From Thermodesulfobacteriota bacterium (lineage in GTDB: Bacteria; Desulfobacterota; Anaeroferrophillalia; Anaeroferrophillales; Tharpellaceae), in the NCBI GenBank assembly GCA_024763535.1, contig JANTFH010000008.1, positions 1,948 to 65,947 of the forward strand: 64,000 nucleotides of DNA, in the 5' to 3' direction. Positions 11,458 through 18,362 of the stretch are shown one piece after another (position 1 is the stretch's first letter; each line of letters opens with the position of its first letter). The notes below the pieces were generated by a model. It saw nothing but the letters and a program-made list of their open reading frames with translations. It did not search any database and had not been told where the DNA came from. The position numbers and the translations under genes were made by a program.

Positions 11458-14067
11458 TTACGTATTAAATACCAGCTTATCGTTTACGACTTTTACCTCA
11501 ACCGTATCGCCGTCTTTAACCTCACCGGCCATAATCGCGTAGGCCAGCGGGGTTTCAAGCAGATTTTTCAGGGCCCGCTTCAGGGGCCGGGCGCCGTAGG
11601 TCGGATCGTAGCCGGATTCGGCGATCAGGGCTATGGCTTCAGGATCAAGATTAAGTTTAATATCCTTTTCCGCCAGGCGTTGTCCCAACTCCTCAAGCTG
11701 AATTGTGATGATCTTCTCCAGATCTTTACGTTTCAAAGCGTGAAAGACGATTATATCGTCGATCCGGTTGAGAAATTCGGGCCGGAATTCTGCTTTCATT
11801 GCTTCCAGTACGGTCTTGTTGACCCGGGCGAAACTCTCCTCCGACTCCTCTCCCGGCGCCATGTTTTCAATGATGAACTGACTGCCGATATTCGAGGTCA
11901 TGATAATCACGGTGTTTTTGAAATCGACGATGCGGCCGTGTGAGTCGGTCAGGCGGCCGTCATCCAAAACCTGAAGCAGGATGTTGAAAACATCATGGTG
12001 CGCTTTTTCGATCTCATCAAAAAGAATGACCGAGTAGGGTTTGCGGCGTACCGCTTCCGTCAATTGACCGCCTTCATCATAGCCGACATAACCCGGAGGC
12101 GCCCCGATCAGCCGGGCGACCGAATGTTTCTCCATGTATTCCGACATGTCAATCCGGGTCATATTACCTTCGTCATCGAAAAGAAATTCGGCTAGCGCTT
12201 TGGCCAACTCGGTTTTACCGACCCCGGTCGGGCCGCAGAAGATAAAACTGCCCAGCGGTCTTAAGGGGTCGTTGATACCGGCCCGGGCCCGGATTACGGC
12301 ATCGGCAACCGCCTGAACGGCATCCTCCTGACCGACGACCTTCTTGTGGAGATGCTCATTCAAATGGAGCAGCTTCTCGCGTTCTCCTTCAAGCAGTTTA
12401 CTGACCGGGATACTGGTCCAGCGGCTGATGATTGCGGCGATCTCCTCTTCGTCGACAACCTCTTTTAACAGCGAGCGGCCGCTCTTCTGGATCTCCAGAA
12501 TCTTGTTGCGGGCCTCTTCCCGTTGTTTCTCCAGGGTCGCCAGCCGGTCGTATTTAAGTTCCGCCGCTTTATTTAAATCATACTCGCGTTCGGCGTGTTC
12601 GATTTTGACTTTGACCTCTTCAATCTCTTTCCCGATCCGGCGCAAATTAGCAATCAGCTCTTTCTCCAGCTGCCAGCGGGCGGTTACGGTTTTACTTTTG
12701 CTCTGCCAATCGGCAAGTTCCTGCTCAATCTTCTCCAGCCGCAGGCGCGAGGCTTTGTCTTTGTCTCTTTTCAAGGCTTCGCGTTCGATCTCTAACTGCA
12801 TGATCTTGCGGGTTATATCGTCCAGTTCACTGGGCATGCTGTCGATCTCGGTCCGCAGCCGGGCTCCGGCCTCATCAATCAGATCGATTGCCTTATCCGG
12901 CAGGAAACGGTCGTTGATATAGCGGTGCGACAGGGTCGCGGCCGCAACCAGAGCGGTATCTTTATACTGAATTCCGTGATGAACCTCATAACGCTCTTTC
13001 AAACCTCGAAGAATCGATATCGTATCGGCAACACTCGGCTGGTCAACCATAACCGGCTGGAAACGGCGCTCTAAAGCGGCATCTTTTTCGATGTAGAGAC
13101 GGTATTCATTCAAGGTAGTGGCGCCGACACAGTGGAGTTCACCCCGGGCCAGAAGCGGTTTCAAGAGGTTGCCGGCATCCATTGAACCTTCGGTTTTGCC
13201 GGCCCCGACCACCGTGTGCAGCTCATCGATAAAGAGGATGATCTCACCTTCCGCCTCTTTCACCTCGTTCAAGACCGCTTTAAGGCGCTCTTCAAATTCA
13301 CCGCGGAATTTGGCCCCGGCGATAAGAGCACCCATATCTAAAGAGATCAGGCGTTTGTTTTTAAGGTTTTCGGGTACATCCTGCACGAAAATCCGCTGAG
13401 CCAGACCCTCGGCGATGGCGGTTTTCCCGACCCCGGGTTCACCGATTAAAACCGGGTTGTTTTTAGTCCGGCGCGAGAGTACCTGGATTACCCGGCGGAT
13501 CTCGTCGTCGCGGCCGATTACCGGGTCAAGTTTGTCTCTGGCCGCGGCTTTGGTCAGGTCGGTGCCGTATTTCTCCAGGGCCTGATAGGTGGTCTCCGGG
13601 TTCTGTGAGGTAACCCGCTGATGACCGCGAACCTCGGTTAGAACCGAGAGCAGCTTCTCGCGGGTAATACCGAAACTATCAAAAAGTGTGGCCATGGGGT
13701 CATTATCGGTCGAAACCAGAGCTAAAAGCAGGTGCTCTACACTGACATATTCATCCTTAAACTGTTCGGCTTCATCCTTGGCTTTGACGAAAACCTGACC
13801 TAAACGCGGGCTCATGTAGAGCTGGCCGCCGCTTCCAGCGCCGGTGACGGCCGGAATTTTGGCCAGTAGTTGTGTGGCCGCATTTTCAACCGCTCCGGTA
13901 GCGATGCCGATCTTCTCTAAAAGCCGCGGCACCAGGCCCTCGGGCTGTTCGATAAGGGCTAAGAGCAGATGCTCGCTGTCGATCTGTTGATGGTGGCGGC
14001 GCAGAGCCAGCTCCTGGGCTGCGGCTACGGCCTCCTGACTTTTCTGGGTAAATTTGTTGGTATCCAT
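11458..14067 (-). CDS. clpB: ATP-dependent chaperone ClpB
   Basis: Clp N-domain, two AAA modules ([16 protein letters not shown]), long coiled-coil middle domain, [12 protein letters not shown]. Confidence 0.97.
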
Positions 14068-14120
14068 ATTAAAAAAACCTCCGTTTTTATTTTTTTTGTA
14101 CAGTTTAAGTAAAAATGGTC

Positions 14121-14239
14121 GTAACTATTCAGCCTGACAGCAAACCCGGGGCCGGGGGTGGCTTTTCTCCGCTAGGTGTTAAGAAAAACCACCCCCGTCC
14201 TCTCCAGAAAGACGGGATATATTTAGGTTGAATAGTTAC
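14121..14239. mobile_element. MITE-like structured element, family A copy 1 (119 bp, internally deleted, inverted relative to copy 2)
   Basis: Terminal inverted repeats GTAACTATTCAGCCT / AGGTTGAATAGTTAC (14 of 15 match); internal GGGGGTGG/CCACCCCC stem; its reverse complement aligns to both ends of 14384-14631. Confidence 0.75.
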
Positions 14240-14331
14240 AGATAGTCTATTATGTATTGAGATATTATTACGAAAATATCTAAATATTTACAGCTCATTT
14301 TTCATAATCTATCTTAAAAGGTAATCATAAA

Positions 14332-14345
14332 TTGACGGTTGTCAA
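14332..14345. promoter_or_regulatory. Palindrome TTGAC-N4-GTCAA (CRP/FNR-type box) coinciding with a possible minus-strand -35 for clpB
   Basis: TTGACggttGTCAA. On the minus strand it reads TTGACA-16nt-TACCTT. Lies between the divergent clpB and aor genes. Confidence 0.35.
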
Positions 14346-14383
14346 GGTATCTACTCAGTTTACGGGCTTATATAAATCTTAAA

Positions 14384-14631
14384 GTATCTATTCGGTCAAA
14401 TAATATCTCCCGTCTTTTAAGGAGGGACCGGGGGTGGTTTTTCTTAAGCGGTTGCGGAAATGATTTCGTCGTTTTTCTTATGCGAGCTAGAGCCCATAAG
14501 CATTGCAACTGTTTGAGCGAAGCGAGTTTTGCAATGCGGGCGAAGCGAGTGTAAGGAAAAACAGAAATCTTAACGCCTGGCGGAGAAAATCCGCCCCCGG
14601 TCCCGGATTTACTGCCAGCCTGAAGAGTTAC
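14384..14631. mobile_element. MITE/REPIN-like structured element, family A copy 2 (full length, 248 bp)
   Basis: Degenerate termini GTATCTATTC...CTGAAGAGTTAC; outer stem 14424-14442/14586-14604; long inner hairpin 14462-14569 carrying CTGTTTGAGCGAAGCGAGTT. Confidence 0.75.
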
Positions 14632-14770
14632 AGCTTAAGAAAAATGAGCTTGACCTTGTTCGTAGACTATGTCAAAGATAACTGAGATTGTTGTCTTTAC
14701 AATCAAGCGATCTCTGTTTTGAGATTGTTGGGGTCGTTTATTCTTAACTTTCTGGTGTGGAGGTATAATT

Positions 14771-16504
14771 ATGGCTGAGAAAATTCTGCGGGTTGATATG
14801 AGTGATTTGAGCGTAAAGAGTGAATCTGTGCCAACTGCCTGGCAGGGGCTCGGCGGCCGGGCCTTGACCTCCGTTATTGTCGCTGCTGAGGTTGAACCGA
14901 CCTGCCATCCGCTGGGCAAAAAAAATAAACTGGTTTTTGCTCCGGGTCTGCTCTCCGGTACCCGGGCGGCTAATTCCGGGCGCCTGTCAGCCGGAGCTAA
15001 AAGTCCGCTGACCGGAACTATCAAGGAGAGTAATTCCGGGGGAACGGCAGCCCAGCTCCTGGCCCGGATGGGGATTAAGGCCCTGATTATCGAGGGAGTT
15101 CCGACGGCTTGTCAGTTTTATGCACTTAAGGTCACCACCGACGGAGTAACTATCACGCCGGAGAATGATCTGGTGGGCTGCGGAAATTTTGAGGTGGTGG
15201 AAAAACTCAATCTTGTGGATAACAAGGAGTGCGGGCTTATATCTATCGGTCAGGCCGGTGAGCGCCAGCAGCTGGCGGCCAATATCTCGGTAAAGGATCC
15301 GGAAGGTAAATTCCGTAGTCTGGGCCGTGGCGGTCTGGGCGCGGTAATGGGTTCCAAAGGGATTAAATATATAACTCTGGATGCCGCCGGGACTCAGAAG
15401 AGTGTGCCGCTGGCGGACAGTGATAAGTTTAAGGAAGCGGCTAAAACCTTTGCCAAGGCGCTGCTTGATCACCCGGTTTGCGGTGAGGGGTTGGGCGCTT
15501 ATGGTACCAATGTTCTGGTCAATATCGTTGATGCCGTCGGTGGTCTGCCGACCAAAAATTTCCGTTACGGCCACTACGAAGATCATGAGTTGATCAGTGG
15601 CGAGAAGATGGCTGAGATGATCAGTGAACGCGGCGGCAAAGTCAAGCACGGCTGTCATGCCGGTTGTGTCATGCAGTGCTCTCAGGTCTTTGTCGACAAA
15701 AACGGTGAATATGTCACCTCGGGTTTTGAATATGAAACCATTTGGGCTCTGGGGGCTCACTGCTGTATCTCCGATCTGGATATCCTGGCTCAGGCCGACA
15801 ACCTGATGGATGACATCGGTATCGACTCAATTGAGACCGCCGTGACTCTGGGTCTGGCGATGGAGGCCGGAATCATCGAGTTCGGTGACGGCCCGGGCCT
15901 GCTTAAACTTCTGGATGAGATTAAAAACGGAACCCCGGTAGGCCGTATTCTCGGCAGCGGGGCTTCAGTTACCGGTAAAGTTTACGGTCTGACCCGGGTG
16001 CCGGTAGTTAAGGACCAGGCGATTCCGGCTTACGACCCGCGTTCGGTCAAGGGTATCGGGATAACCTACTGTACCTCAACCATGGGGGCTGATCACACTA
16101 TCGGCTATACGATTGCCACCAATATCCTTAAATGCGGCGGTTTTGTCGATCCTCTGCAGAAAGAAGGCCAGGTCGAGCTCTCCCGGAATCTGCAGATCGC
16201 CACCGCGGCGGTTGACAGTACCGGGCTCTGCATCTTCGTCGCTTTCGCGGTTCTGGATGATCCGACAGCGCTGCCGGCGATTGTCGATATGCTCAATGCC
16301 CGTTTCGGTATTTCCCTGACTGTAGATGATGTTACGGCTCTCGGAACCTCGGTGTTGAAGACGGAGCGCGCCTTTAATCAGGCTGCCGGTTTCACTAACG
16401 CCCATGATCGCCTGCCGGAATTTTTTACTGATGAAGTTGTTCCGCCGCATAATGCCGTATGGGATTTCAGCGATGCTGAAATCGATGAATTCTGGAATTT
16501 CTAG
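14771..16504 (+). CDS. aor: Aldehyde:ferredoxin oxidoreductase (tungsten-cofactor family)
   Basis: AKSPLTGTIKESNSGG, GRGGLGAVMGSKG, CHAGCVMQC, EYET, DSTGLC; SD GGAGG upstream. Confidence 0.92.
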   Translation: MAEKILRVDMSDLSVKSESVPTAWQGLGGRALTSVIVAAEVEPTCHPLGKKNKLVFAPGLLSGTRAANSGRLSAGAKSPLTGTIKESNSGGTAAQLLARMGIKALIIEGVPTACQFYALKVTTDGVTITPENDLVGCGNFEVVEKLNLVDNKECGLISIGQAGERQQLAANISVKDPEGKFRSLGRGGLGAVMGSKGIKYITLDAAGTQKSVPLADSDKFKEAAKTFAKALLDHPVCGEGLGAYGTNVLVNIVDAVGGLPTKNFRYGHYEDHELISGEKMAEMISERGGKVKHGCHAGCVMQCSQVFVDKNGEYVTSGFEYETIWALGAHCCISDLDILAQADNLMDDIGIDSIETAVTLGLAMEAGIIEFGDGPGLLKLLDEIKNGTPVGRILGSGASVTGKVYGLTRVPVVKDQAIPAYDPRSVKGIGITYCTSTMGADHTIGYTIATNILKCGGFVDPLQKEGQVELSRNLQIATAAVDSTGLCIFVAFAVLDDPTALPAIVDMLNARFGISLTVDDVTALGTSVLKTERAFNQAAGFTNAHDRLPEFFTDEVVPPHNAVWDFSDAEIDEFWNF

Positions 16505-16552
16505 GGAACGGAAACCGGGTAGAGGGTACCCTGGAATTTCAAGCTTATTTCG

Positions 16553-16602
16553 AAGGCACGAGAAGAGTGAAATCGATCCTTATTTCACTCATCTCGTGCC
16601 TT
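16553..16602 (+). terminator. Long hairpin downstream of aor (terminator or RNA-stabilising stem)
   Basis: AAGGCACGAGAAGAGTGAAAT / ATTTCACTCATCTCGTGCCTT, 20 of 21 pairs, 8-nt loop. Confidence 0.65.
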
Positions 16603-16633
16603 GTTGTATATTTATGTTTTTGTTTAACTAATT

Positions 16634-16984
16634 ATGACTAAATCTTCGAAAGAAAAAGATATTTCATATGAAATGACAGATGAAGATAAGACCATAAAAA
16701 TTATGGTCGAACTCTTCTGTCGAGAGCGGCACGGGAGAGAGCGGCATGGGGGCGACTTTCTCTGTGATGAGTGCCGGGAACTGCTCGAGTATGCCCGGGC
16801 CAGGGTACGTCAATGTCCCCTCAAAGAGCAGCGAACCACCTGTGGTAAATGTGAGATTCACTGCTACAAACCGGCCATGCGGCAGCGGATACAGGAAGTG
16901 ATGCGCTACGCCGGCCCCCGCATGTTCAAAGTCCATCCGCTGCTGGCCGCCAGACACCTGCTTAAAGGCAGGGGTAAAAGTTAA
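16634..16984 (+). CDS. YgbA family (nitrous oxide-stimulated promoter family) Cys-rich protein
   Basis: LCDECRELLEYA..R...CP.....TCGKCEIHCYKP.MR.RI.EVMRYAGPRM pattern. Confidence 0.85.
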   Translation: MTKSSKEKDISYEMTDEDKTIKIMVELFCRERHGRERHGGDFLCDECRELLEYARARVRQCPLKEQRTTCGKCEIHCYKPAMRQRIQEVMRYAGPRMFKVHPLLAARHLLKGRGKS

Positions 16985-17081
16985 TCAATCCCGGCTTTTG
17001 AACTTGAGGATTATCACAATAAATGTTATGTCTGGAACTCAGCGATTAAGTTTCGTTCGATGATAAATTTGTCTTCGCAGA

Positions 17082-17272
17082 AATCCAGGGATATCTGGTG
17101 AATTTCGGGAACTTCTCGTGAAATTTCGTCGTTTTCCCCAGTGATTGGAGCCCATGAAAATTGCTGCTGTTTGAGTGCGTCAGCACGAGTTCAGCAATTT
17201 GGGCGTAATCAGCGCTGGAAAAACAGAAATTGAGCGTACGAAGTGGATGAAAATTACCAGATAGCCCGGGTT
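17082..17272. repeat. Structured element, family A copy 3 (diverged, same orientation as copy 2)
   Basis: Shares ATTTCGTCGTTTT, GAGCCCAT, CTGTTTGAG..CGAGTT, GGGCG and GGAAAAACAGAAAT in the same order as copy 2. Stem sequences differ but stay complementary. Outer stem 17082-17106/17249-17272. Confidence 0.8.
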
Positions 17273-18362
17273 GGGAGATTATGGTTTGGTCTTGAAAGAA
17301 CGGCGGAAAAGTCGTCAGATTGAGCTGGGCGGGGTAATAATCGGCGGCCGGGCGCCGGTATCGGTGCAGTCTATGACCAACACCGATACCCGGGATGTAC
17401 AGGCCACCGTCGCCCAGATTAAACGGTTGGAAAAAGTCGGCTGTGAGCTGGTTCGGGTGGCGGTTCCGGATGAGAGCGCGGCTTATGTTCTCTCCGAGAT
17501 CAAAGACCGGATTACCATTCCGTTGCTGGCCGATATCCATTTCAATCATCGTCTGGCCCTGATCGCGGTCGAACAGGGGGTTGACGGTCTGCGTCTGAAT
17601 CCCGGCAATATCGGTTCGGCTGCTCGGGTGCGGGAGGTGGTTTCCGCCTGTAAGGATCGGGGCGTGCCCATCCGTATCGGGGTTAACGGCGGTTCCCTGG
17701 AAAAGGAACTGCTGCTTAAATACGGCCCAACCCCTGAAGCCCTGGTTGAGAGTGCGCTAGGCCATGTGCGGCTCCTGGAAAATGAGAATTTTGAAGAGAT
17801 AAAAATATCGTTGAAATCTTCTGATGTCCCGGCGACACTGGCAGCTTACCGGGAGTTGGCGAAGCGGGTTGATTACCCTTTTCATATCGGTATCACCGAG
17901 GCCGGAACCCGATTGCGCGGAGCTATAAAATCGGCCGCCGGGATCGCTCTGCTGCTGGCGGAGGGCTTGGGTGATACCCTGCGGGTGTCGTTGACCGCCC
18001 CTCCGGAAGAGGAGATCTTCGTCGCTTTTGAGATTCTCAAAAGTCTGGACTTGCGACAGCGGGGGATTGAACTTATCAGCTGTCCCACCTGCGGTCGTAC
18101 CGAAGTTGGTCTGATCGAACTGGCGGAAAAAGTAGAGGGTGCTTTAGCGCATATTGAGAAACCTTTGAAAATCGCGGTAATGGGTTGTGTCGTCAACGGC
18201 CCGGGTGAGGCCCGGCATGCCGATTTCGGGATTGCCGGAGGTAAAGGTGTGGGCCTTATTTTTCGTAAGGGCGAAATCTTGAAAAAATTACCTGAGAGTG
18301 AACTTCTGTCAGCTCTGGTGGCCGAGGTCGAAAACTATGTTGCCGGGGCGGCTGTGGATTAA
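17271..18362 (+). CDS. ispG: 4-hydroxy-3-methylbut-2-en-1-yl diphosphate synthase
   Basis: VQSMTNT, ADIHF, RLNPGNI, IRIGVNGGSL, SCPTCGR, MGCVVNGPGE. True start may be TTG 17286. Confidence 0.96.
   Translation: MGDYGLVLKERRKSRQIELGGVIIGGRAPVSVQSMTNTDTRDVQATVAQIKRLEKVGCELVRVAVPDESAAYVLSEIKDRITIPLLADIHFNHRLALIAVEQGVDGLRLNPGNIGSAARVREVVSACKDRGVPIRIGVNGGSLEKELLLKYGPTPEALVESALGHVRLLENENFEEIKISLKSSDVPATLAAYRELAKRVDYPFHIGITEAGTRLRGAIKSAAGIALLLAEGLGDTLRVSLTAPPEEEIFVAFEILKSLDLRQRGIELISCPTCGRTEVGLIELAEKVEGALAHIEKPLKIAVMGCVVNGPGEARHADFGIAGGKGVGLIFRKGEILKKLPESELLSALVAEVENYVAGAAVD

Follow-up and report, generated by a model that had tools for sequence, protein, structure and literature searches.

Among the small repeats of bacteria, the ERIC/IRU, YPAL, Correia (NEMIS) and RUP elements are limited to single families or genera, have TA duplications or other ends, and may be co-transcribed with neighboring genes; roles as cis-acting mRNA hairpins are known for the ERIC, YPAL and Correia repeats. 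The REP/REPIN sequences and the derivatives of IS200/IS605 have neither target duplications nor terminal inverted repeats. Among complete insertion sequences, ISDge4 of Deinococcus geothermalis (ISBst12 group, IS66 family) encodes a transposase of 449 aa, is bounded by GTGACTACTCAGCA and GTAACTGCTCAGCA, and generates direct repeats of 8 bp (PMC12898284). Mini-hairpin DNA is located at priming or promoter sites in single-stranded DNA, the examples in PMC13037366 being GCGAAAGC of phage G4, GCGTTAGC of St-1/alpha3, CCGAAGG of RSF1010 ssiA and GCGGAGC of N4.

The element described here resembles the ERIC/IRU, YPAL, Correia and RUP elements in being small, intergenic, dispersed and non-coding, with inverted-repeat ends and a long hairpin. 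To our knowledge, none of those is known for a tip motif common to phyla. The element also differs from them in that a Lonepinella unit remained unmatched in 5,426 E. coli genomes; distant blastn with this unit and with copy A (see below) gave no match in E. coli genomes and PLSDB plasmids.

Two non-coding segments of the window (the whole 64,000-nt stretch of Thermodesulfobacteriota DNA analyzed here), designated copy A and copy B, are old, enzyme-less copies, or relics, of one small hairpin-folding mobile element (Table 1). The ordered motifs which the original prediction had described as shared by them are present at the respective sites (ATTTCGTCGTTTT at 14463 and 17123, GGAAAAACAGAAAT at 14555 and 17217), and all the paired segments it had quoted were located and are complementary. 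Both segments are real; their limits had to be corrected, with copy A forming a 248-bp unit at 14384-14631. Short motifs of this kind are not rare on their own (at least three near-matches to the first motif appeared in 53 of 100 shuffles), and the significance therefore lies in motif order and pairing. The fold of copy A (14400-14630) reached -99.2 kcal/mol compared to -68.1 ± 4.9 in 200 shuffles (z = -6.30), and that of copy B (17070-17280) -82.1 compared to -56.5 ± 3.9 (z = -6.59), with no shuffle as good in either case. Copy A matched about 20 other copies at 80-91% across its whole length, while copy B matched other copies of subfamily B at 73-88%; with model R1, their apical modules scored 63.5 bits (E 6e-17, at 14497-14540) and 50 bits (E 1e-12, at 17155-17203), respectively. 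For the limits and the target duplication of copy B, the candidate repeats disagreed with the sequence of the closest congener, and only the core of this copy is firmly placed. The outer arms of a nearby 119-bp relative match those of copy A, whose core is located between two TCTTAA repeats.

Table 1. Positions of the two element copies, their parts and a short relative in the window.
Feature	Position	Strand	Remark
Copy A, complete subfamily-A MITE, full-length foldback, 248 bp	14384..14631	+	Folds as one rod
Left terminal inverted repeat of copy A (GTATCTATTCGGTC, degenerate)	14384..14397	+	Family consensus GTAACTATTCAGCC; 3 of 14 positions differ
Right terminal inverted repeat of copy A (GCCTGAAGAGTTAC)	14618..14631	+	Family consensus GGCTGAATAGTTAC
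8-bp target duplication of copy A, left (ATCTTAAA)	14376..14383	.	6 of 8 positions identical to AGCTTAAG
8-bp target duplication of copy A, right (AGCTTAAG)	14632..14639	.	
Conserved core of copy A (ATTTCG...CAGAAAT)	14463..14568	+	71% identity to subfamily B
Apical module of copy A (CTGTTTGAG-CGAAG-CGAGTT, mini-hairpin GCGAAGC inside)	14509..14528	+	
Copy B, rod of subfamily-B element	17082..17272	+	One rod; outer limits uncertain, ~17046 to 17272-17295
Conserved core of copy B	17123..17230	+	
Apical module of copy B (CTGTTTGAG-TGCGTCAGCA-CGAGTT, with GCGTCAGC inside)	17167..17191	+	
119-bp short relative, coreless, same inverted-repeat ends and outer arms	14121..14239	-	

Further copies, looked for following the original prediction, were abundant. 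The genome of the window (G000, a 2.6-Mb draft, 94.65% complete) contains about 30 of them, with 36 core loci recovered by blastn and 29 matches by model R1. Of 41 related genomes, 13 also gave matches; a first look yielded 369 candidates in the relative G016 and 222 in G019. Model R1 detected the element in 19 of 151 genomes of the phylum, where its distribution is patchy and multicopy. Complete units are 234-285 bp long and have no coding capacity. A coding reading of the tip (LFERSEF) was ruled out by tip lengths differing by 1, 5 and 6 nt; the lengths of the tip indels are not multiples of three. Copy A lies upstream of an aldehyde:ferredoxin oxidoreductase gene, and copy B occupies the 5' leader of ispG, between a conserved promoter-like site and the ispG start. 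At the latter locus, an empty orthologous site was found: the core upstream of ispG, present in G000, was absent from all 12 congener regions whose length allowed a judgment. The essential gene ispG tolerates a hairpin of about 200 nt in its leader, and the element explains the assembly of G000 into many contigs that break at this repeat.

Complete copies are bounded by the terminal inverted repeats GTAACTATTCAGCC...GGCTGAATAGTTAC, from which most copies in G016 and G019 deviate by 0-1 bases. Target duplications of 8 bp were perfect in 16 of the 43 elements bounded by both repeats and agreed at 7 or more of the 8 positions in 21, compared to 0 of 43 at that level for the next 8 bp outward; with permuted partners, the mean was 0.7 and the maximum 5 (1000 trials). 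The element thus has the defining features of a MITE, being short and non-coding, with terminal inverted repeats, a duplication of fixed length (8 bp), many dispersed copies and insertion polymorphism. Its ends begin with GTAAC, and the ISBst12 group is recognized by ends beginning with GTAA and an 8-bp direct repeat. Each end is identical at 11 of 14 positions to that of ISDge4 as given above, and both have an 8-bp duplication; the IS66 ends given in PMC12888890 were also used for this comparison. The element is, in terms of its ends, a MITE of the ISBst12 group (IS66 family), and the anatomy of these ends suggests the transposase mechanism: inverted repeats and 8-bp duplications like those of ISBst12/IS66 point to a DDE-moved MITE and therefore not to an HUH/ssDNA element. 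The original notion of a non-autonomous mobile element is well supported by the number of copies, the inverted-repeat ends, the duplications and the empty orthologous site.

The absence of a cognate enzyme, originally stated for the window, extends to the whole G000 draft as far as tested. Neither a PF03050 search nor tblastn with the G008 and G016 proteins revealed an IS66-type transposase there, and the genome-wide profile search for PF01609 (IS4/IS5-type) was negative as well; three PF01797 matches are located on other contigs. The congeners G016 and G008 possess PF03050 transposase genes (single ORF, ~450 aa) whose ends, GTAACTGCTCACCC / GTAACTACTCGCCC and GTAACCGTTCACGG, are similar but not identical to the MITE ends. 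Among five other element-bearing genomes tested, PF03050 was found in only two and not in G019, G009 and G031, all of these assemblies being incomplete drafts. The searches brought up no autonomous element whose ends are exactly those of the MITE. Among the papers listed by a full-text literature search, none described an IS66-derived MITE like this element.

The whole element is a strand-asymmetric foldback under selection to pair. In a consensus structure of 31 pairs derived from 50 copies of G000 and nine relatives, compensatory changes on both sides were observed in 15 pairs. Paired cells amounted to 97.5% compared to 88.7 ± 0.4% with shuffled partners (0 of 500 shuffles as high) and only 30-49% when the partner was slid by 1-3 columns, whereby the kinship of the copies makes cell counts overstate independent events and shuffle tests overstate significance. 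Deviation from the consensus in three genomes was 2.4, 2.3 and 7.7% at paired versus 6.2, 6.7 and 13.5% at unpaired positions, a difference that may partly represent alignment noise in unpaired low-complexity tracts. The changed pairs in three genomes were G.T rather than A.C at about 2:1 (111 vs. 59), and of the 78 elements, 75 had the more stable fold on the + strand under RNA parameters and 74 under DNA parameters. The stems covary, and the loops that interrupt them keep their sequence. Selection on a folded single strand, as originally claimed, is thus upheld by covarying stems, conserved loops, the preference for G.T over A.C and the better fold of the + strand.

The apical motif consists of CTGTYTGAG, a GNA or GNNA mini-hairpin with a stem of 2-4 bp, and CGAGTT, and it caps variable stems. 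It is present in dispersed repeats of many phyla, with more than 120 stretches against ~4 expected; the 20-mer of the copy A apical module recurs in many phyla, and the tip is common, letter for letter, to repeats of Bacteroidota, Bacillota, Pseudomonadota, Nitrospirota, Patescibacteria, Spirochaetota and others, housed there in different carrier elements. In G000, 13 of 19 distinct caps fitted GCGNAGC or GCGNNAGC; the corresponding counts were 21 of 32 for relatives and 17-18 of 20 for a phylum sample. Caps with CTTA, CTGA or 9-nt loops, which make up about one third of those in the family of the window, deviate from the mini-hairpin rule. A phage-specific tip was ruled out, as only 14 stretches with the motif were found in viral contigs. 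The conserved positions, compared by eye with known consensus sequences, do not fit an IHF site, a sigma-54 promoter, a LexA box, parS, ops or a hammerhead core. No target duplications were seen by eye around the Lonepinella units and unit pairs. Literature searches with the tip and the flanking-hairpin sequence returned unrelated primers or nothing, and the element was absent from the literature found on multi-phylum stem-loop repeats, multicopy long-hairpin RNAs, and MITEs in connection with single-strand initiation. In Proteobacteria, Bacteroidota and the related lineage G031, the rod is followed by a second hairpin with the potential for triple-helix formation.

Overall, we consider it probable that a DDE transposase acting in trans moves the element, a MITE with a fold that serves its own propagation, and more likely as single-stranded DNA than as RNA. 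The transposase, supplied in trans, would recognize the GTAAC... inverted repeats and insert the element by an 8-bp staggered cut. The fold of the + strand may serve the propagation of the element and not a host gene, because pairing is kept in multiplying lineages independently of gene and replication direction. Its working form would more probably be single-stranded DNA than RNA, and the tip, as a mini-hairpin of high stability, may nucleate the fold and serve as a site for docking or priming. A difficulty is that a DDE transposase acts on double-stranded ends, leaving an internal single-strand fold with no known reason.

Alternatively, the fold may be a cis-acting mRNA hairpin (a stabilizer, processing site or insulator) that forms when transcription from neighboring genes runs through the element, which would leave the MITE identity unchanged. 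With such a role, the host could tolerate insertions in leaders and between genes, and all 29 copies in G000 are indeed intergenic (across one of them runs an opposite-strand ORF of 236 aa, taken as spurious). Copy B lies inside the ispG leader, past the promoter-like site, and is therefore very probably transcribed. The rods are also very stable as RNA, and the G.U bias and the + strand advantage suit RNA and DNA alike. However, the orientation of the copies is random with respect to the downstream gene (14 same, 14 opposite) as well as within co-directional gene pairs (9 to 8), and therefore the less stable complementary RNA would be made at half of the sites. Moreover, the tip loops agree better with the rule for DNA (GNA, GNNA) than with that for RNA (GNRA), which is broken by six of the seven G-N-N-A tetraloop types seen, and a generic hairpin role leaves the 20-nt identity of the tip across phyla unexplained. 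A cis-acting purpose thus appears unlikely, and, judging from the loop types and by analogy, we lean towards a single-stranded DNA signal.

It is very unlikely that the copies represent the undescribed structured ncRNA of the original prediction in the sense of free-standing genes, whose discrete, trans-acting RNA would bind a conserved cellular partner via the tip and be spread by transposon ends. Conserved loops, covarying stems and a tip common to phyla would suit such genes, and in one Bacteroides genome there are just two full copies, resembling paralogous genes more than a repeat family. Against this, neither core contains promoter-like or terminator-like sites, the orientation to genes is evenly split, the conserved unit coincides with the transposon ends at both sides, and the patchy multicopy spread is that of mobile DNA. 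All-against-all blastp of the ORFs located up to 3 kb from the motif at ~120 loci from many phyla revealed no conserved protein neighbor, the matches being spurious overlapping ORFs and common paralogs such as ABC ATPases. The original prediction could name no matching family, and Rfam 15 gave no gathering-score match in the window; the elements in 14000-17600 were unmatched at E up to 10, 18 loci from other phyla gave no match on the motif, and a Lonepinella pair had chance matches only.

Concerted evolution without any selected function, by hairpin-templated repair or gene conversion between the arms and with covariation as a by-product, has even less to recommend it and is highly improbable. 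Long inverted repeats can homogenize their arms, and the kinship of the copies inflates the significance of the shuffle tests. Yet conversion would erase mismatches, whereas the internal loops and the non-palindromic tip are kept across subfamilies that are 71% identical, the tip even across phyla; nor would it produce a preference for G.T over A.C, or for one of the two strands.

The chance that the element moves as folded ssDNA by means of an HUH/Y1 enzyme, the other option originally raised, is negligible: the strand-specific fold and the Y1 transposase genes in all six element-bearing genomes tested would speak for it, but the element differs from REP/REPIN (with RAYT) and IS200/IS605 derivatives, which are likewise dispersed intergenic hairpin repeats with maintained pairing, by having target duplications and inverted-repeat ends and by lacking an adjacent Y1 gene and a replication strand bias (12 copies on the leading and 17 on the lagging strand according to GC skew), none of 15 Y1 loci had the element or the tip within 1.5 kb, the Y1 genes of G000 included, and PF01797 is common anyway (6 of 14 control genomes).

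A DDE-moved MITE is in itself nothing out of the ordinary; the unusual part is that such a transposon keeps a strand-specific fold with conserved loops. A bolder proposal, which we regard as quite doubtful, is that the rod and tip form a pan-bacterial, horizontally spreading single-stranded DNA signal, carried as cargo by different non-autonomous elements, that would fold, exclude SSB and recruit primase or RNA polymerase as a universal host enzyme. If true, it would enable elements too short for chance priming to complete the second strand during copy-out transposition, and would be a chromosomal counterpart of the single-strand initiation sites of phages and plasmids. A tip that docks a universal enzyme on single-stranded DNA would also answer why many bacterial miniature repeats are full-length hairpins. 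If the tip is only a stable nucleator of the fold, it is still a marker with which to find and classify repeats missed by the current RNA and insertion-sequence libraries.

Unlike the insertion sequences of the ISBst12 group, the element has no coding capacity and is over its full extent a selected foldback that ends in a conserved tip; beyond ~14 bp, its interior has nothing in common with the insertion-sequence ends found in this analysis. Those tip caps that fit GCGNAGC or GCGNNAGC agree in sequence with the mini-hairpins given above for the phage G4, St-1 and alpha3 origins, RSF1010 ssiA and the N4 early promoters, among which the side hairpins of the element, CCGAAGG and GCCCGAAGGGC, also find their match; the hairpins are specific to one strand in both. 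Those signals are single-copy, belong to phage or plasmid origins or promoters, and have known enzymes, whereas here the putative mini-hairpin forms the tip of a 150-250-nt rod, in repeats of the chromosome, between the invariant flanks CTGTYTGAG and CGAGTT.

Copies A and B, the subfamily-A and subfamily-B elements of the window, carry the shared motifs in one and the same order at the positions where they had been read from the sequence, with 74% column identity in the alignment. Folding models predict that each forms one long rod far stabler than shuffled sequence: copy A reached -99.2 kcal/mol against -68.1 +/- 4.9 for 200 shuffles (z -6.30) and copy B -82.1 against -56.5 +/- 3.9 (200 shuffles, z -6.59), with no shuffle equal to either. 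The elements matched no Rfam 15 family, in the whole window at gathering score or in 14000-17600 at E up to 10. The covariance model R1, which describes the apical tip capping the rod (CTGTYTGAG, a GNA/GNNA mini-hairpin, then CGAGTT), found the two copies as its sole matches in the window. A strong perfect hairpin AAGGCACGAGA.GAGTGAAAT / ATTTCACTC.TCTCGTGCCTT lies directly after an oxidoreductase gene; it looks like the terminator of that gene and bears no relation to the repeat family.

Both copies are members of a repeat family and not an isolated pair. A 131-nt core query gave 41 matches in the genome holding the window (G000; 2.6 Mb, 126 contigs, 94.65% complete, the window being C8:1948-65947). 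A functional structure was expected to recur, and both cores as blastn queries returned 36 loci in G000, with matches in 13 of 41 genomes when 40 related ones were included. About 20 copies in G000 belong to subfamily A (90-96% identical to the copy A core) and about 13 to subfamily B (73-94% identical to the copy B core); many element copies were found at contig ends, so that the assembly breaks on them. The first look gave 369 candidates in the related genome G016 and 222 in G019. Some G000 copies have an additional stretch of ~20 nt, ACCCTAAAGGGCATAAATTTC, forming a small hairpin, at a constant position of the 5' arm (in one copy, of the 3' arm); it may mark a subfamily or be an even smaller element nested in this one. 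Near-identical subfamily-A cores also occur in the public MAG 'Proteobacteria bacterium isolate S015_20' (L151, L186; WFRT01000009.1, WFRT01000254.1), and a MAG labelled 'Desulfobulbaceae bacterium' (L108) has the tip in a different stem.

Positions of the elements and associated features (G000, the genome holding the window)
Feature	Sequence	Positions	Strand	Remark
Copy A	window	14384-14631	+	248 bp, subfamily A
Copy A core	window	14463-14568		
Copy B	window	~17082-17272	+	subfamily B, limits uncertain
Copy B core	window	17123-17230		
Repeat with shared ends	window	14121-14239	-	outer arms of copy A, no core
Repeat with shared ends	G000 C11	9540-9671		
Repeat with shared ends	G000 C15	43558-43689		
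Repeat with shared ends	G000 C16	33637-33767		
Repeat with shared ends	G000 C22	20358-20496		
Repeat with shared ends	G000 C30	9851-9981		
Repeat with shared ends	G000 C113	2063-2192		
Repeat with shared ends	G000 C55	11152-11281		
Copy listed for the ~20-nt insert	G000 C27	8293-8552		
Copy listed for the ~20-nt insert	G000 C1	127914-128154		
Copy listed for the ~20-nt insert	G000 C35	23805-24042		
Copy listed for the ~20-nt insert	G000 C35	22031-22138		
Perfect hairpin	window	16553-16602		after oxidoreductase gene

The RNAalifold consensus of 50 cores from 10 genomes contained 31 pairs, and compensatory changes were seen at 15. Paired cells made up 97.5%, against 88.7 +/- 0.4 with shuffled partners (a level reached by none of 500 shuffles) and 30-49% once partners were slid, and the covariation score was 0.325 versus 0.160. 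The 9-bp apical stem occurred as GCATTGCAA, AAATTGCTG, AAATTGCCG, AAATTGCGA, AAATTGAAG, AAACTGCAA and AAATTGCGG, and the opposite arm was complementary every time. Within genomes, consensus-paired positions were less variable than unpaired ones (deviation 2.4% against 6.2% in the 19 copies of G016, 2.3% against 6.7% in the 19 of G019 and 7.7% against 13.5% in 12 of G000), changed pairs were more often G.T than A.C (40 against 19, 30 against 18 and 41 against 22 cells, respectively), and the + strand was predicted to be stabler than the opposite strand in 75 (RNA parameters) or 74 (DNA parameters) of 78 elements; the copies being related, these counts overstate the independent events, and the trends ran in the same direction across three genomes and two subfamilies. 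Covariation and strand preference show that one strand of the element is under selection to fold. This part of the original prediction stood.

Alignment including the flanks delimited a unit of ~235-260 bp with the termini GTAACTATTCAGCC ... GGCTGAATAGTTAC. Target duplication was assessed in 43 elements from G016, G019, G000, G008 and G015 with both ends placed at no more than 3 mismatches, rows without a located end having been removed before counting. The 8-bp flanks were at least 7/8 identical in 21 of the 43 and perfect in 16; the next 8 bp outward reached 7/8 in none, and permuted partners gave a mean of 0.7 and a maximum of 5 (1000 trials). Since several misses were off by 1-2 bases, the true share is higher. 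Ends and duplications are identical in kind in subfamily B2 (G008, G015, G001). Moreover, GTAACTATTCAG ends and 8-bp duplications recur in G000 on no fewer than three further kinds of short repeat (119-139 bp) whose interiors are unrelated, and the copy A core is itself flanked by two TCTTAA repeats. One type of short interior has a GGGGACAGAATTCAATTCTGTCCCC hairpin and a GGGCGAAGC mini-hairpin. The element is shown to be non-autonomous, with IS66/ISBst12-type ends and 8-bp duplications, and to have multiplied in several lineages.

An orthologous site devoid of the element was found upstream of ispG, where G000 has copy B: among 14 congeners compared, 12 had enough upstream sequence, and all 12 lacked the core, as expected of an insertion. 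In the congeners, a promoter-like site is conserved (CTTGAGGATTAT, then TATGCC after a spacer, with TG two bases before TATGCC), followed after ~40-50 nt by the ribosome-binding site and the ispG start codon. Copy B lies between these in G000 and therefore in the ispG leader, so that an essential gene tolerates a hairpin of ~200 nt there. Its right arm looks like that of other B copies and also like the native ribosome-binding region in the closest congener, and the ispG start is probably a TTG near 17286-17295 rather than 17271.

A candidate transposase is present in the congeners G016 and G008 as PF03050 (DDE_Tnp_IS66) genes. The G016 gene is a 449-aa open frame with the ends GTAACTGCTCACCC / GTAACTACTCGCCC, and that of G008 has GTAACCGTTCACGG ends. 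ISDge4 of Deinococcus geothermalis, of the ISBst12 group of the IS66 family, is reported to have the ends GTGACTACTCAGCA / GTAACTGCTCAGCA, direct repeats of 8 bp and one transposase of 449 aa (PMC12898284, 2026); each of these ends shares 11 of 14 bases with that of the element. GTAAGCG or GTAACCG is the start of further members of IS66 (PMC12888890). No IS66-type transposase was found in G000 by the PF03050 family search or by tblastn with the G016 and G008 proteins, and the family search returned none in G019, G009 or G031. Copies in G000 are more decayed, their end positions deviating from consensus by 15.6% versus 3.8% in G016 and 5.1% in G019, which fits relics whose enzyme was lost from the genome or is missing from the assembly.

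We infer that selection on the fold acts on propagation of the element, given that pairing is kept in the lineages that multiplied and is indifferent to the direction of host transcription and replication. The chief alternative is that the hairpin works as RNA, within the transcripts where the element has landed, of which the ispG leader would be an instance. Orientation relative to the downstream gene was the same in 14 cases and opposite in 14. All 29 copies are intergenic, one being spanned by a single opposite-strand ORF that we take to be spurious. GC skew in G000 is strong (mean absolute value 0.076 per 20 kb), and the + strand coincides with the G-rich strand in 12 copies, with the opposite one in 17. 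Neither a promoter-like nor a terminator-like site was seen inside the core of copy A or B. The enriched HUH/Y1 neighbour envisaged at the outset did not appear: Y1 transposase genes occur in G000 (three) and in five other element-bearing genomes, with no element or tip within 1.5 kb at any of 15 fetched loci. Taken together, these findings speak against three readings: a cis-regulatory RNA, a self-transcribed RNA gene and a single-stranded DNA element of the IS200/RAYT type.

If the fold does serve propagation, several speculative roles can be considered. An element of 250 nt may be too short for chance priming and hard to bend until its ends meet; a strand-specific foldback could join the two ends, and an SSB-resistant mini-hairpin tip might mark the start of second-strand synthesis, should the transposase use a copy-out route. 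ISDge4 is termed 'copy-and-paste' in PMC12898284, where the mechanisms of the family are said to be insufficiently characterised.

The tip extends far beyond this family. In G031, from a different family of the same phylum, many copies match copy A, but over no more than 24 nt of the tip. Scanning a single genome for each species gave at least 120 stretches of CTGTYTGAGCGWAGCGAGTT; our own arithmetic puts the chance expectation for 596 Gb, both strands counted, at ~4. The records carry the names Bacteroides, Parabacteroides, Flavobacterium, Sphingobacterium, Lachnospiraceae, Selenomonas, Variovorax, Ralstonia, Thauera, Methylotenera, Haemophilus, Lonepinella, Nitrospirales, Acidobacteriota, Patescibacteria, Saccharibacteria, Treponema, Campylobacterales and others, and in every case inspected the tip caps a complementary stem of differing sequence. 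Over ten tip-flanking positions in 121 unfiltered units, 875 of 1210 cells were Watson-Crick in register, against 369 +/- 18 (maximum 417, 200 trials) with shuffled partners; the flanking 10-mers were 98 distinct ones. R1 was built from 54 tips pre-filtered for at least 8/10 stem pairs, which biases its paired figure of 95.8%. Of 151 genomes drawn from throughout the window's phylum, 19 contained the module by this model, patchily over families and usually in many copies per genome. The tip is hence a module common to unrelated carriers: the G031 units have inverted-repeat ends different from those of the window's family, and the ~30 units of ~230 nt in Lonepinella koalarum have no inverted ends or duplication visible by eye. 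One Bacteroides genome holds two full copies. No conserved protein gene neighbours the tip loci; across phyla the upstream gene was co-oriented in 42 and opposed in 29, a weak skew. The module is rare in viral contigs (14 stretches), and searches of E. coli genomes with a Lonepinella unit and of PLSDB plasmids with copy A were both negative.

The carriers show further features of their own. The G031 units (L051-L058) measure ~430 nt and have end hairpins of the type CCACG-CCCAGAGGA-CGTGG at both ends; one copy bears an insertion of 72 nt. Y1 transposase matches number 20 in this genome, and at the loci fetched none adjoins a unit. The Lonepinella units (G041, L202-L213) often form head-to-head pairs, (-) then (+), 30-350 nt apart, with the outer (3') end within ~20-30 nt of a gene start or end and uptake-signal-like AAGTGCGGT sequences between some pairs. 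Downstream of the rod, a second hairpin with a pyrimidine and a purine arm, e.g. CCTACTTTTCTTTGG / CAAAGAAAAGTAGG, occurs in Proteobacteria (L142, L105, L119, L123, L124, L131, L148, L149, L202-L213), Bacteroidota (L102, L137, L146) and G031 (L051-L058), in total 36-40 of 115 units by presence of its 7-mers. The pyrimidine tract TTTCTTTT before it is its mirror image, an arrangement that an intramolecular parallel triple helix would need; a Methylotenera unit whose purine strand is interrupted by a T has a matching G in the third strand. Often there is then a further small hairpin, the third, with a CGAAA loop.

A MITE is a kind of element already known. Literature searches by sequence string and keyword, together with Rfam, returned nothing on this family, the IS66 link or the pan-bacterial tip; an earlier description under another name is possible.

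The outermost tip is a 2-4-bp stem with a small loop. Its triloops comprise all four G-N-A forms (GAA, GTA, GCA, GGA), and of the seven tetraloops starting with G (GTAA, GTTA, GTCA, GGCA, GCCA, GGTA, GATA) six violate the RNA GNRA rule and all fit G-N-N-A. We lean towards DNA rather than RNA as the working form, a leaning only, as about one third of caps in the window's own family depart from the mini-hairpin rule (CTTA, CTGA, CTAA, 9-nt loops). CCGAAGG-type hairpins also occur on the 3' arm of proteobacterial units. GCGNAGC and GCGNNAGC are the mini-hairpin DNA of Kimoto and Hirao, described in PMC13037366 as extraordinarily stable and poorly bound by SSB. The same paper lists mini-hairpins in phages G4 (GCGAAAGC) and St-1/alpha3 (GCGTTAGC) at the complementary-strand origin, in RSF1010 ssiA (CCGAAGG) and in the hairpin promoters of phage N4 (GCGGAGC). 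The tip caps found here include exactly these sequences.
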